Source of the DNA: a virus
Length of the DNA: 13,009 nucleotides
UHGV virus genome: UHGV-1799913
Strand: one strand, 5' to 3'
The notes under the pieces are model-generated. The model was not told where the DNA came from, did no database searches, and saw nothing but the letters and a program-made list of their open reading frames with translations. The position numbers and the translations under genes are program-made. Of the stretch, positions 3,866 to 10,629 are shown piece by piece; positions within the stretch are counted from its first letter, which is position 1, and every line of letters starts with the position of its first letter.

Positions 3866-4075
3866 TCACACCACCTTGAATAAGAACCAGCCCATACCGC
3901 ACACAATCAGGCCCACAATGGTTATTGCGGAAGACATGCGTACATGGTCAATGGCTAGTTTTGAAAGTGGCTGGCGATGTTCTTTTTTCGTCAGCGAGTT
4001 GATTGCTATGCCGAGCAGAAACGTCCCGACAAACCATAATGCGTATATCTTTAAGCCCAACTCCAAATCACTCAT
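3866..4075 (-). CDS. small membrane protein (69 aa, two predicted TM helices)
   Basis: Track ORF MSDLELGLKIYALWFVGTFLLGIAINSL...ITIVGLIVCGMGWFLFKVV has two hydrophobic stretches; AAGAGGA RBS before the ATG at 4075. Sits where lambda carries kil/cIII/sieB-type small genes. Confidence 0.55.
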   Translation of the reverse strand: MSDLELGLKIYALWFVGTFLLGIAINSLTKKEHRQPLSKLAIDHVRMSSAITIVGLIVCGMGWFLFKVV

Positions 4076-4206
4076 AAATCCTCTTGGCCTTATCGCGGCG
4101 AACGGAACGGTTAATACAAGACTTCAACGCATTTATTCAGTGTTTCAATGGGCGGTGGATGGCCGCCGGTTTTCATAACTAAGCCGCCTCGGTGAAGCGA
4201 CTGAGG

Positions 4207-4232
4207 TATGAAAAAGCCCTCCGGAGAGGGCT
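4207..4232 (-). terminator. putative rho-independent terminator (minus strand)
   Basis: Minus strand reads GCCCTC-TCCG-GAGGGC followed by TTTTT (plus 4211-4231), directly after the stop of the 50-aa peptide gene. Confidence 0.5.
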
Positions 4233-4383
4233 ATGTGTTTCGCTTAATCATTGGGTAAGCCAGAGCAATTACACCTGCCACTAATACCCCGTCAGCCAGC
4301 ATCGACATCAACTTCCCGGTGAAATCGACAGCAATCACCAGGAAGAGGAGGACGCCGATAATCAACCAGCGCAATTTATCCAT
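4231..4383 (-). CDS. small hydrophobic membrane peptide (50 aa)
   Basis: Hand-translated minus-strand ORF MDKLRWLIIGVLLFLVIAVDFTGKLMSMLADGVLVAGVIALAYPMIKRNT, below the track cutoff. Its ATG overlaps the TerB-like stop (ATGA); strongly hydrophobic; followed by a terminator. Confidence 0.4.
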   Translation of the reverse strand: MDKLRWLIIGVLLFLVIAVDFTGKLMSMLADGVLVAGVIALAYPMIKRNT

Positions 4384-4808
4384 CAGATATAAGCGTCGAG
4401 TGATAACTGAAGAGCCTGAGCGATTTTCTTCAGCTGTTTTTCTTCGTCTTCGCCGATGCCGTCGTTATCGGCTACGTCAAGGCACAGGCAGAGCACATCA
4501 ACTGCGTCTGGAGTATCTGCCACATCTGCAAGTTCGCGCATTGCCTGGGCATTAGCAGAGCGAGGGGACGCTTCGTACTGTGCGCGAATGTTGCTGCTCA
4601 TGATGGCGATCTCACCTGCGAAAGCAGAGAACGCTGGTTTTGCCTGAATGGTTTTCTCCAGCGTTGCAATTTCTGACGCATCACAAGTACCGTCTGCATA
4701 AGCGATCGAGTAACAGCCCCACACCGTTGCTTCAACTGCGTCGCGGTTTTCCATCTTCTTCACTTCGACGATCGCCTTGCGTGCTTTTTTCTTAAACAGT
4801 CCGAACAT
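4383..4808 (-). CDS. TerB-family (tellurite-resistance TerB-like) protein, 141 aa
   Basis: Two ADG/acidic repeats (AYADGTCDASEIATLEK and DVADNDGIGEDEEKQLKKIAQAL) and an MFGLFKK N-terminus resemble E. coli TerB (MSFFDKVK...VASDGVSSEEK...AKSDGNFDDDEK, recalled). AAGAGGG RBS before the ATG at 4808. First sizeable gene downstream of the presumed pL. Confidence 0.55.
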   Translation of the reverse strand: MFGLFKKKARKAIVEVKKMENRDAVEATVWGCYSIAYADGTCDASEIATLEKTIQAKPAFSAFAGEIAIMSSNIRAQYEASPRSANAQAMRELADVADTPDAVDVLCLCLDVADNDGIGEDEEKQLKKIAQALQLSLDAYI

Positions 4809-5035
4809 TTGACTACCCTCTTGGTTTAAGCCATCAACTTGATGGCGACATTTGACTTACCGTCAGCCCCTCGTAAAGAGCTGCTGGTAAATCGTGTTGC
4901 CATAATTGCCGCTCCTCCTGAGCCCGCCTATGGTCCGACGCATGGTTTACTGTCGCGCCGTTCGACTGACCGAATCTCCACTTCGCTGCTGGCTAACTTC
5001 GCTCAGCTGTCGATGTTTCGTTTCGATGGGGTGAA

Positions 5036-5110
5036 TTTAGCGTGATGCTAAATTATGCGCAATAGCAAAATGCTAAATTGTTGAATGGTTTTATTTAGCG
5101 TATTGATTAA
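5036..5110. promoter_or_regulatory. OL-like operator cluster / presumed pL region
   Basis: Three 17-mers matching TTTAGC-N5-GCTAAA: 5036-5052 tttagcgtgatgctaaa (perfect half-sites), 5061-5077 aatagcaaaatgctaaa, 5094-5110 tttagcgtattgattaa. Lies between the cI terminator and the leftward operon. Confidence 0.45.
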
Positions 5111-5149
5111 TAAGCGATTAAAAATTTACAGCGAAGGAATTCGGGACGT

Positions 5150-5173
5150 AAAAAAGCCCGCGCGATGGCGGGC
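5150..5173 (-). terminator. putative rho-independent terminator downstream of the repressor gene
   Basis: Minus strand: GCCCGC-CATCGC-GCGGGC stem-loop followed by TTTTTT (plus A-run 5150-5155), about 20 nt after the cI stop. Confidence 0.5.
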
Positions 5174-5193
5174 TTGAGGGGTTTTGCGTGAGG

Positions 5194-5871
5194 TTATGGG
5201 ATGTTTAGTATTTTGGCATCAACCACAACGCCGATGATTTTGCAGTTTCCATTAATTTCTAGCATTGGATATGCGGGGTTAAGGGGCTTTAGGAAGCGTC
5301 TGCCGGCATCGATTACAAGCTTCTTAAAGGTCGCTTCGTTATCGCCTTCTAGCTTCGCGACAACCAGCTTTCCGTTGCGCGGCTCGACTTCAGGATCAAC
5401 AAGTATCGCTGCTCCCTCGGGTATGCTCAGTCCAGCCGGGGAGGTCATAGAATCCCCTTTAACGTCCAGCCAGAATGAATCTTCTGAGCAGTCAACAGTC
5501 GTGTCATACCAGCGATCTATCGCTCTTCGGTGATAAGGTTCTACAGCTTCCATCCATTGCCCCGCGCTTACCCAGCTGATTACAGGATAACTTCCTTTTG
5601 TCTCGTTCAGTCCTCGAAATGAAACGTTCGAAGGTTCTTCACTGGCGTGTAAAACATCCATCCAGCCAAAAGGCAGATCAAGCGCAGTTTCAATTTTGCG
5701 AGCCATCTTATCGCCGATATTGCGATGAGGGTTTGGTCCCAGTAGCTGGCTAAGCGCAGCCGGACTTGTCTCGATGAGCTCGGCAAACTGCGCTTTGGTC
5801 ATTCCAGACTCGTGCTGACGCTTCTCGTACAGCGCTTCCAGGTTGGCTTTTCTGATTTCTTTATTTTCCAT
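5194..5871 (-). CDS. cI: CI-like prophage repressor, LexA/S24 peptidase family (HTH plus autocleavage domain)
   Basis: From ATG 5871: MENKEIRKANLEALYEKRQHESGMTKAQFAELIETSPAALSQLLG (HTH), an Ala-Gly linker site (WVSAGQW), and a C-terminal S24 domain with GDSM (Ser) and a downstream Lys (VVAKLEG). Divergent to the cro-like gene and flanked by operator-like repeats. The track start at 5988 is a TTG inside the operator region and is rejected. Confidence 0.8.
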   Translation of the reverse strand: MENKEIRKANLEALYEKRQHESGMTKAQFAELIETSPAALSQLLGPNPHRNIGDKMARKIETALDLPFGWMDVLHASEEPSNVSFRGLNETKGSYPVISWVSAGQWMEAVEPYHRRAIDRWYDTTVDCSEDSFWLDVKGDSMTSPAGLSIPEGAAILVDPEVEPRNGKLVVAKLEGDNEATFKKLVIDAGRRFLKPLNPAYPMLEINGNCKIIGVVVDAKILNIP

Positions 5872-5889
5872 ACCTGCATTGTTACTGCT

Positions 5890-5955
5890 TTTAGCAAAAT
5901 GATAAATGTGCAAATTGCTAAATGATGCTTGCGTAGTATTTAGCATAACGCTAAA
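5890..5955. promoter_or_regulatory. OR-like operator cluster with divergent promoters (pRM/pR equivalents)
   Basis: 17-mers 5939-5955 tttagcataacgctaaa (perfect inverted repeat TTTAGC-N5-GCTAAA) and 5890-5906 tttagcaaaatgataaa, plus a weaker one around 5906-5922, in the 116-bp gap between the divergent cI and cro-like starts. Confidence 0.5.
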
Positions 5956-5987
5956 CTCCAAATCAAACGACTCACCCGGAGACACCA

Positions 5988-6221
5988 ATGAGCACTGAAC
6001 TACACCGCTGGCGCAAGGCCGCCACTACCGACGAATGGGCGCAGCTCGCAAAGTTGGCTAACACGACGCCAGGTTACCTGGACCAGATCGCCTACGGAAA
6101 TCGCCGGGCATCTCCAGAAATGGCATCTGCTATCGAGAAAGGCACGAAGAATTTTCACCGCCAGGCTCCGGTCCTAAAAGAAAGCCTGGTATTCGCATCG
6201 CCGCGTGATACTGCGGCCTAA
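5988..6221 (+). CDS. Cro-like small HTH DNA-binding protein (first gene of the rightward operon)
   Basis: 77 aa; GGAG 6 nt before the ATG; HTH-like segment DEWAQLAKLANTTPGYLDQIAYGNRRASPEMASAIEKGT; divergent from cI across the operator region. Confidence 0.6.
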   Translation: MSTELHRWRKAATTDEWAQLAKLANTTPGYLDQIAYGNRRASPEMASAIEKGTKNFHRQAPVLKESLVFASPRDTAA

Positions 6222-6238
6222 CCACGAAAGGGAAAGCA

Positions 6239-6784
6239 ATGCATTCACTTGCGTATCAACAAGGTAACAAATTTTCGCCAACGGCGATGATTTACCAGAA
6301 TCGCCGGGAGCCTGATTCCACGGCGTTAAACATCGATGGGATCCGCGCAGCTGTTCGCGCCTGGGCAGCTGATTGCCGAAGCCGTGAATTTGTCGCCGCG
6401 CTGATCGTGGAAGAGTGGCGGGCGTCCGGCGGAACCGGTCTGGATATCCCGACTGACTCGCACCGCCAGATGCAGAAAGTGTTTCGATGGATTGATGGTG
6501 ATACCGAATACGCCGCCAACAACATTCGCCAGCTGGCCCCGGCAATCATGTCGGTCCTGCCGCTGGAGTACCGAAACCGTCTGGCGCCGCAGAACGACAC
6601 GATGTCGCTGATCGCCTCTGCGATGAAAGAGTGTGCCGAGGCTAAACAGGCCGTGCTGCTGGACGCTCCAGAGCATCAGAAGCTCAAAGAGGTAAGCGAG
6701 GGTATAGCGTCGCTGTTCCGCCTCATGCCGGAGCAGGTAGGAACGCTGATGACGATGGTTACATCGATGCTGGGGGTTATATGA
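6239..6784 (+). CDS. YdaT-like protein (Rac/CP-933P YdaT family, reported as a CII functional analogue)
   Basis: EEWRASGGTGLDIP...HRQMQKVFRWIDGDTEYAANNIRQLAPAIMSVLPLEYRNRLA parallels E. coli YdaT as I recall it (EEYLRQGGGELPLV...YHRWLKGETKTQREKIQKLIPAILAILPRELRHRL). Lies in the cII position after the cro-like gene. Confidence 0.6.
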   Translation: MHSLAYQQGNKFSPTAMIYQNRREPDSTALNIDGIRAAVRAWAADCRSREFVAALIVEEWRASGGTGLDIPTDSHRQMQKVFRWIDGDTEYAANNIRQLAPAIMSVLPLEYRNRLAPQNDTMSLIASAMKECAEAKQAVLLDAPEHQKLKEVSEGIASLFRLMPEQVGTLMTMVTSMLGVI

Positions 6785-10447: not shown

Positions 10448-10539
10448 AATAGGGTGCGGGGTTCGAACCCGCGGTACGGGTTTATAGCCCGTACGCCTCA
10501 TTATCAGTGAGGTGCCATCAACCACTCGGCCAACCCTCC
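10448..10539 (-). tRNA. tRNA-like element, type II (long variable arm), anticodon GAU by fold; imperfect acceptor stem, no encoded CCA; possible pseudogene or non-canonical phage tRNA
   Basis: Minus strand GGAGGGT-TG-GCC-GAGTGGTTGAT-GGC-A-CCTCA-CTGATAA-TGAGG-CGTACGGGCTATAAACCCGTACC-GCGGG-TTCGAAC-CCCGC-ACCCTAT. Cloverleaf has a canonical T-arm (GGTTCGAAC) and Ser/Leu-like D-loop (GCCGAGTGGTTGA), a 7-bp variable-arm hairpin, and a 5-bp anticodon stem with loop CU-GAU-AA. The acceptor has a G2-A71 mismatch and a G1-U72 pair. Confidence 0.5.
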
Positions 10540-10629
10540 GTTGTACCTTGCAAGCAAGGGGTGAAAGAAATATAGCATTATGATTTAAAAAATAAAGTGA
10601 ATTATCATCGAATAACATTACCAAAAATA

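Follow-up and report, generated by a model that had tools for sequence, protein, structure and literature searches.

Six candidate operators flanking the cI-type repressor gene of an E. coli lambdoid prophage outline a probable H-19B-family immunity switch

The immunity region and its repressor

The DNA analyzed here, a stretch of 13,009 bp hereafter called the window, is part of an E. coli lambdoid prophage, and 27 of 5,426 complete genomes carry its interval from 4950 to 6000 at 98% identity or more. A cI-type repressor gene on the minus strand lies back to back with a cro-like gene on the plus strand, and short dyads resembling operators are found on both sides of the repressor gene (Table 1). 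To the right of the repressor, the plus strand carries the cro-like gene, a cII-like gene (phrog_163, YdaT domain) and O and P genes, and to the left of the OL dyads the minus strand carries TerB-like, TciB-like, kil, gam-like and bet/RecT genes. Homologous Cro-like proteins of 75-84 aa starting with MSNELLRWRK are encoded in all the lambdoid loci that we collected, including the cro gene of the Stx1 phage H-19B, the product of which shares with the window Cro both this start and the subsequent ...GYLDQIAYG..RRASP segment. An Rfam scan of the window returned one tRNA and no known phage regulatory RNA.

A mosaic junction at 4984, some 43 nt downstream of the predicted PL start, is common to the Klebsiella phage KO-TP1 and several E. 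coli prophages, so that the exchanged module runs from OL to cII, as expected of an immunity cassette. The same type of immunity module is also present in Klebsiella phage vB_Kpn_Chronis and in hundreds of IMG/VR contigs, as well as in KO-TP1 itself.

Table 1. Coordinates of the genes, dyads and predicted promoters of the immunity region (window positions; sites and promoters are named by analogy with lambda)
Feature	Coordinates	Strand	Sequence or elements	Matrix score	Remarks
PL (predicted)	5034-5062	-	-35 TTGCGC (5062-5057), 17-bp spacer, -10 TAAATT (5039-5034)
OL1	5036-5052		TTTAGCGTGATGCTAAA	23.2	perfect dyad
OL2	5061-5077		AATAGCAAAATGCTAAA		TTTAGC-N5-GCTATT in PL direction
OL3	5094-5110		TTTAGCGTATTGATTAA	16.3	weaker site; 33 bp from OL2
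Intrinsic terminator after cI	5154-5175	-			terminator scan
cI-type repressor gene	5194-5871	-			226 codons including stop (225 aa); HTH N-domain and S24 C-domain
PRM (predicted)	5878-5906	-	-35 TTTATC (5906-5901), 17-bp spacer, -10 AACAAT (5883-5878)
OR3	5890-5906		TTTAGCAAAATGATAAA	25.9	TTTATC-N5-GCTAAA in cI sense; -35 to -19 of PRM
OR2	5906-5922		ATGTGCAAATTGCTAAA (TTTAGCAATTTGCACAT in cI sense)	12.4	
PR (predicted)	5929-5957	+	-35 TTGCGT (5929-5934), 17-bp spacer, -10 TAAACT (5952-5957)
OR1	5939-5955		TTTAGCATAACGCTAAA	26.4	perfect dyad; conserved position
cro-like gene	5988-6221	+			77 aa; weak HTH_3, phrog_35; faces repressor gene

Profile scans place an HTH_3 domain at residues 14-70 of the repressor (22.9 bits, just below the 23-bit cut-off) and a Peptidase_S24 domain at residues 96-217 (E 1.9e-29). 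In a protein alignment of 25 repressor homologues the residues A103-G104, S141 and K183 are invariant, which would correspond to the Ala-Gly cleavage site and to the Ser/Lys dyad of an S24 autocleavage domain. The AlphaFold model of the N-domain (pLDDT 78) contains helices at residues 3-22, 26-32, 37-44 and 54-63, and its nearest solved folds are those of the SPC32H repressor and of the lambda cI N-domain (TM 0.53-0.56 for the lambda-cI-like fold); the third helix in this model (residues 37-44, PAALSQLL) is the predicted recognition helix.

Database annotations give the repressor 250 aa and start it at an ATG at 5946, 25 codons upstream and inside OR1. We reject this start in favor of the ATG at 5871, because more distant homologues with the same N-domain have 223-229 aa and the 25-codon N-terminal extension is broken by stop codons in two related loci (L009 and L013). 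Over 5211-5604, the part encoding the C-domain matches repressor genes of P22-like phages of Salmonella (SE21, ER25, phages 22/25/34) at about 77% nucleotide identity, and protein alignment shows it to be shared with C2-type repressors (e.g. P0097, 'Repressor protein C2'). The N-terminal DNA-binding domain of P22-like repressors is of a different type, so their operators differ, and the window repressor is thus a domain-level mosaic.

Distribution and conservation of the dyads

The initial annotation had proposed that a family of 17-bp dyads, TTTAGC-N5-GCTAAA, flanks the repressor gene, with three copies to its left and at least two in the cI/cro intergenic region. Five matches to TTTAGCNNNNNGCTAAA with up to two mismatches were found in the window, all of them within 5036-5110 or 5890-5955, against an average of 0.55 and at most three in 200 dinucleotide shuffles, none of which reached five. 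OL1 and OR1 are perfect, OR3 has one mismatch, and OL2 and OL3 have two each, so the proposed count holds on both sides; an interval of 920 bp thus contains two perfect 12-of-12 dyads, for which the expected frequency is about 0.06 per Mb. The GCTAAA hexamer follows the same pattern, with eight of its ten occurrences in the window falling in the two clusters, of 75 bp each. Allowing three mismatches adds OR2, together with matches elsewhere at chance level; OR2 is too weak to stand alone and is supported by its conservation in relatives, raising the count in the cI/cro intergenic region to three.

A weight matrix trained only on the sites of other loci and then run on the window ranked the same five sites as its top five, scoring them at 16-26 where shuffled sequence reached at most 17.1, and placed OR2 seventh. 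Another matrix match, at 10571-10587 (score 14.2), was set aside as a probable chance match: it scores below the shuffle maximum and lies in AT-rich sequence beside a tRNA-like gene.

A comparable density of the motif elsewhere in the genome would have spoken against an operator function. Within the window, no copy with two or fewer mismatches lies outside the two clusters. In 413 kb of related genomic loci, the sites with at most one mismatch all sit at OR or OL positions, with one possible exception (locus L048, position 6680), and lone two-mismatch sites number about 25, against a rough expectation of about 15 that assumes equal base frequencies. With the near-perfect sites confined to OR and OL and the lone two-mismatch sites close to expectation, no such background density is seen in the sequence examined.

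Related loci were collected by similarity to the repressor N-domain alone, yielding 51 genomic loci and 160 viral contigs. Across about 200 of these loci, drawn from many Enterobacterales, each OR site keeps its distance to the repressor ATG (OR1 at -84 to -68, OR2 at -51 to -35 and OR3 at -35 to -19) and the spacers drift. Loci with these OR offsets come from Enterobacter, Citrobacter, Atlantibacter, Phytobacter, Pantoea, Sodalis, Biostraticola, Pectobacterium, Hafnia, Rahnella, Xenorhabdus and phages. In 49 distinct upstream regions the three OR 17-mers are 90-99% conserved per column, against 40-70% for flanking and intervening bases, the exception among the latter being a GCAA (TTGC on the other strand) that is also conserved.

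Downstream of the repressor gene, the OL2/OL1 pair with its 25-bp spacing was found in 172 loci, all with a perfect or near-perfect site at the OL1 position; in some loci OL lies 1.5-3 kb downstream, owing to extra genes inserted between cI and OL. As these loci were chosen by regular expression, measuring conservation within the half-sites of OL1 and OL2 is circular and only OL3 and the spacers are informative: column conservation is 0.79 in OL3 versus 0.59 in the neighboring spacer, and OL3 itself is clear mainly in closer relatives. Comparison with KO-TP1, which is 91% identical from 4984 to 6784, shows the OL-region substitutions to fall between sites or in the central N5.

These data leave little room for the clustering being a product of chance or base composition. 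Single matches with two or three mismatches do occur elsewhere at about the rate expected by chance, but neither the shuffles nor the expected frequency of perfect dyads approaches what is seen at the two clusters, and the positions are kept in some 200 loci; we consider this explanation negligible.

Dyads and predicted early promoters

A strict sigma-70 consensus scan of 4700-6100 called no promoter, the cI terminator being its sole call, and PR, PL and PRM were therefore assigned from conservation across loci, aided by analogy with lambda; they should be regarded as predicted promoters, with -35 hexamers matching at only three of six positions.

The predicted PR and PL share a TTGCxx-N17-TAAAnT design in which OR1 and OL1, respectively, fill the spacer and provide the first four nucleotides of the -10 hexamer. 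At PR, the TTGC and TAAACT elements are conserved in position across loci. In the direction of PL the sequence reads TTTAGCATTTTGCTA-TTGCGC-ATAAT-TTAGCATCACGC-TAAATT-CACCC-CATC, and TTGCxx-N17-TAAA(T/G)T and CATC again occupy conserved positions; transcription from PL likely starts at A5027, inside the conserved CATC. The last two T's of OL2 begin the -35 hexamer of PL, and both the 25-bp centre-to-centre distance between OL1 and OL2 and the GCTATT+GC junction are conserved, including in H-19B.

On the other side, the -35 hexamer of the predicted PRM is the left half of OR3, which is TTTATC in the window and either TTTATC or TTTACC across loci. An nAnnAT hexamer, mostly GAnnAT, ends exactly 6 nt before the cI ATG in nearly all loci (variants other than that of the window include GAGAAT, TAAAAT, GAAAAT and GATCAT, and TGn often precedes). 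This position would put the PRM start at or next to the A of the ATG (5871), making the cI mRNA leaderless or nearly so, an arrangement that we consider somewhat better than an even bet. The cI mRNAs of lambda and BAA2326 are likewise without a Shine-Dalgarno sequence (PMC5977221). Two other assignments of PRM elements were rejected: a -35 at TTGCAC, in the right half of OR2, has no -10-like hexamer at the right distance, and TGCTAAAAG, taken as an extended -10, is without the conserved final T.

OR2 combines one good and one weak half-site, has one base in common with OR3 and is centred at -43 of PRM. The centre-to-centre distances at OR are 33 bp between OR1 and OR2 and 16 bp between OR2 and OR3; at 16 bp, two dimers would face almost opposite sides of the DNA, which makes simultaneous or cooperative occupancy of OR2 and OR3 uncertain.

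The deviations of individual sites from the consensus make sense once the promoters are laid over them, as they are conserved exactly where sites and promoter hexamers overlap: the GCTATT+GC of OL2 gives TTGCxx, and the TTTAyC of OR3 is the PRM -35. This overlap raises the question of whether the repeats might be promoter architecture only, that is, AT-rich -10, -35 and UP-like elements of PR, PL and PRM repeated by descent, with no protein bound to the dyads as such. The operator region is indeed AT-rich, and the outer TAAA/TTTA bases of the sites coincide with -10 and -35 hexamers. Promoters, however, are not characterized by twofold symmetry about a fixed 5-bp centre. OL3 and OR2 are conserved despite lying outside any promoter hexamer, and in those loci where OR1 and OL1 read TTTATC..GATAAA instead of TTTAGC..GCTAAA, both halves of each site have changed. 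Promoter descent by itself is hence a very improbable account of the dyads, which we continue to treat as protein-binding sites.

Recognition helix, related switches and immunity specificity

The half-site varies in step with the recognition helix of the repressor. Among 82 distinct repressor/operator combinations, repressors with A, M, T or V at residue 39 always have TTTAGC..GCTAAA at OR1 and OL1, and TTTA(T/C)C..GATAAA is found only with Q39 plus T or S at residue 44 (H-19B, Hafnia/Rahnella, Xenorhabdus and Phlomobacter). Q39 in combination with F40/L44, as in Pantoea, retains GCTAAA, and one locus with Q39/L44 (L014) has a mixed operator of intermediate type. This covariation between helix 3 and the half-site, which amounts to some 4-5 independent lineages, is suggestive, without being conclusive, of a tie between the sites and the cI protein rather than merely the region. 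It could reflect a two-residue code in helix 3, with Q39 plus T/S44 reading T and either A/T/M/V39 or L44 reading G at half-site position 5, a proposal that we offer tentatively and hold to be rather less probable than its negation.

A different regulator of the module, either Cro alone or the cII-like YdaT-family protein, might instead be the main ligand of the dyads. Cro is co-inherited with the sites as strictly as the cI N-domain, and the cII-like gene follows cro. Chromosomal homologues in Serratia, on the other hand, have neither cro nor cII adjoining and still retain OR1/OR3-type sites ahead of the repressor gene, and the G-to-T change in the half-site tracks helix 3 of cI and not the helix of Cro: across loci, the Cro recognition helix shows no covariation with operator type, though Cro is as conserved as cI. 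We therefore judge a main role for one of these other regulators to be unlikely. The Cro and cI proteins of lambdoid phages act on common operators, and binding by Cro would therefore be an addition to the repressor reading and not an alternative to it, and Cro most likely binds the six dyads as well.

Among known systems, the closest counterpart is H-19B, with a cI N-domain that is 51% identical to that of the window repressor (75 aa, E 1e-17); cI of the H-19B type is also found in BP-4795, mEp506 and many Stx1a prophages. The OR sites of H-19B, TTTACCATTTTGATAAA, TTTATCATATTGCGTAT and TTTATCCATTTGCTAAA, lie at -84, -51 and -35, the same offsets as in the window, and its OL sites, TTTATCATTTTGCTATT and TTTATCATTCCGATAAA, follow the repressor gene at a mutual distance of 25 bp and overlap the promoter in the same way, PL showing the same GCTATT+GC overlap with its -35, followed by TAAAGT and CATC. 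The two systems differ in their half-sites, TTTA(T/C)C / GATAAA in H-19B versus TTTAGC / GCTAAA in the window, and in helix 3, SPSQLTQVS versus SPAALSQLL, and heteroimmunity is accordingly expected. They also differ in the left arm, where OL is followed by N in H-19B and by the TerB-like gene in the window. The operator and early-promoter regions of H-19B were characterized experimentally by Shi & Friedman 2001, as summarized in a review passage (PMC8065619) that, citing that work, gives four repressor sites for its OR. Candidates for the fourth site, picked by eye, are TTTATCACACAGAACAA at -103 and the block from -68 to -52; the window has no counterpart to either, and three OR sites are recognizable in it.

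The likeness to lambda is one of layout. Both have 17-bp dyads, arranged in a tripartite OR and OL, with site 1 in the spacer and -10 of PR and PL, one site centred near -42/-43 of PRM and a third over PRM; both repressors combine an HTH N-domain of the lambda-cI-like fold with an S24 C-domain, and the window cI mRNA is probably leaderless, as in lambda. The operator sequence, in contrast, is unrelated. Neighboring sites are 33 and 16 bp apart in OR and 25 and 33 bp apart in OL, versus 23-24 bp in lambda, and about 0.9 kb separates OL from OR, versus 2.4 kb. Neither rexAB nor an N gene was seen among the genes of the window, a further difference from lambda. Measured against known lambdoid operators, then, the dyads match H-19B in offsets and spacings and depart from it in a half-site base.

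The half-site letters TTTAGC / GCTAAA are also those of the KorA operator OA of the IncP plasmid RK2, GTTTAGCTAAAC. The KorA half-sites abut in a 12-bp palindrome, whereas all window sites have a 5-bp centre, and no KorA-like protein was found among the scanned ORFs of the window; we treat the resemblance as coincidence. Our literature search on GCTAAA/TTTAGC-type operators and on KO-TP1 and vB_Kpn_Chronis found no analysis of the operator type.

Considered together, these comparisons lead us to assign a probability of about 85% to the six dyads being operators of the prophage cI repressor. The OL/OR layout that the initial annotation had read from the letters alone gains substance from a repressor gene with HTH_3 and S24 domains, a cro-like neighbor and sites at fixed offsets in about 200 loci. 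Its suggestion that the dyads define the likely immunity specificity is likewise supported by the joint change of half-site and recognition helix, and can be made more specific: the locus appears to be the OL/OR set of an H-19B-family cI/Cro switch with G, not T, at half-site position 5, and this base would probably give it an immunity distinct from that of H-19B. The specificity would be new within a family that is known and, going by the review passage cited above, has been studied experimentally.

The sequences directly show the sites, their clustering and conserved positions, their overlap with conserved promoter-like hexamers and their covariation with the recognition helix, and from these we infer repressor binding, site affinities, cooperativity, PRM activation and transcription starts. 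The mechanism would be as follows. Dimers of the repressor would use the N-domain helix-turn-helix to bind TTTAGC-N5-GCTAAA. With OR1 in the spacer and -10 of PR, OL1 in those of PL and OL2 reaching the PL -35, occupied sites would keep RNA polymerase off the two early lytic promoters. OR2, at -43 of PRM, corresponds in position to the site at which lambda cI acts as an activator of PRM, and activation of PRM from OR2 is conceivable here, at odds that we put slightly under even. OR3, lying over the PRM -35, would shut PRM off at high repressor levels, in keeping with negative autoregulation. Upon induction, the S24 domain would relieve repression through RecA-stimulated self-cleavage at Ala103-Gly104.

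The switch mechanism itself is textbook and holds no surprise for the specialist. What the analysis contributes is a corrected annotation of the immunity module, with the true repressor start, six candidate operators and three predicted promoters, and its placement as a sister specificity of the medically relevant H-19B/Stx1-phage switch. A bolder proposal, which we advance as speculation and would not favor over its opposite, is that a single symmetric base pair sets immunity specificity and that the same repressor-operator unit has been kept throughout the genus Serratia as a non-prophage chromosomal autoregulator; if true, the family would constitute a natural, minimal specificity-switch series. 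The graded series found in nature, from TTTAGC through the mixed type to TTTATC, with its matching changes in helix 3, offers a simple system for studying the divergence of lambdoid immunity specificities.

Repressor start and the operator region

Among the close repressor homologues (P0001-P0021), the annotated length is 250 aa and the annotated start is an ATG lying within OR1, one of the predicted operators between cI and cro. The additional 25-codon N-terminal extension corresponds in the window to the operator region in translation, and in more distant loci it is interrupted by stop codons. Judged from the sequences, the 250-aa start is probably a systematic start-site misannotation. Separately, the repressor ORF of the Pectobacterium polonicum locus (L013, 4001-4978) spans 325 aa, extending about 100 aa beyond the rest of the family.

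H-19B (L053), for which four OR sites have been reported, carries two possible extra sites (2398-2414 and 2433-2449) that the window lacks: TTTATCACACAGAACAA, which lies after the early promoter PR and before cro, and ATCATCCGCAATGTAAA, in the gap from OR1 to OR2. Each is a candidate for the reported fourth site.

Features flanking the immunity region

The predicted leader of the early promoter PL folds better than its shuffles and encloses a short ORF (see table). The first genes after PL are TerB-like and TciB-like, with no N-like antiterminator gene following the promoter. A sharp mosaic junction falls at approximately 4984, some 43 nt past the start predicted for PL; similarity to Klebsiella phage KO-TP1, and likewise to some of the E. 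coli prophages, begins at precisely this point.

The cII genes of phages HK225 and HK639 are 92-99% identical to the cII-like gene of the window. In the record of HK639, this match overlies a feature annotated as 'M3-like RNA'; Rfam returned no RNA family at the cII-like gene of the window.

Within the nin region, an unusually long tRNA-Ile(GAT)-like gene follows a hairpin in AT-rich sequence. The best off-target match to the operator weight matrix, trained on sites of other loci, lies 32 bp from this gene and is probably due to chance.

Coordinates of features in the window
Feature	Position	Strand	Details
PL leader, predicted	4809-5027	minus	219 nt; z = -3.3 against shuffles
25-aa ORF	4903-4826	minus	MATRFTSSSLRGADGKSNVAIKLMA; within predicted PL leader, preceded by AGGAGG
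Repressor N-terminal extension, as annotated in close homologues	5872-5946	minus	25 codons
cII-like gene	6239-6784		phrog_163, with Pfam YdaT_toxin domain
tRNA-Ile(GAT)-like gene	10448-10539	minus	92 nt; Rfam 46 bits; ARAGORN
Best off-target operator-matrix match	10571-10587		TATAGCATTATGATTTA; score 14.2

Operator layout in related loci

In the Biostraticola, Sodalis and Pantoea loci (L008-L012), the distance from the repressor start to the downstream OL is 1.5-3 kb, which indicates that extra genes are inserted between cI and OL, in the position occupied by rexAB in lambda.

A 248-aa HTH+S24 repressor homologue (4001-4747 in each locus) is found in many of the recovered Serratia species (~28 loci, L019-L047) in a chromosomal, non-phage setting, with a divergent Amidase_2 gene upstream and FUSC-family and NAD-binding epimerase genes close by. 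Neither cro nor OL is present within 4 kb in these loci. They retain OR3-type sites at unchanged offsets, and many of them OR1-type sites as well; possibly, the Serratia homologue is a domesticated cI-like regulator that controls its own expression.
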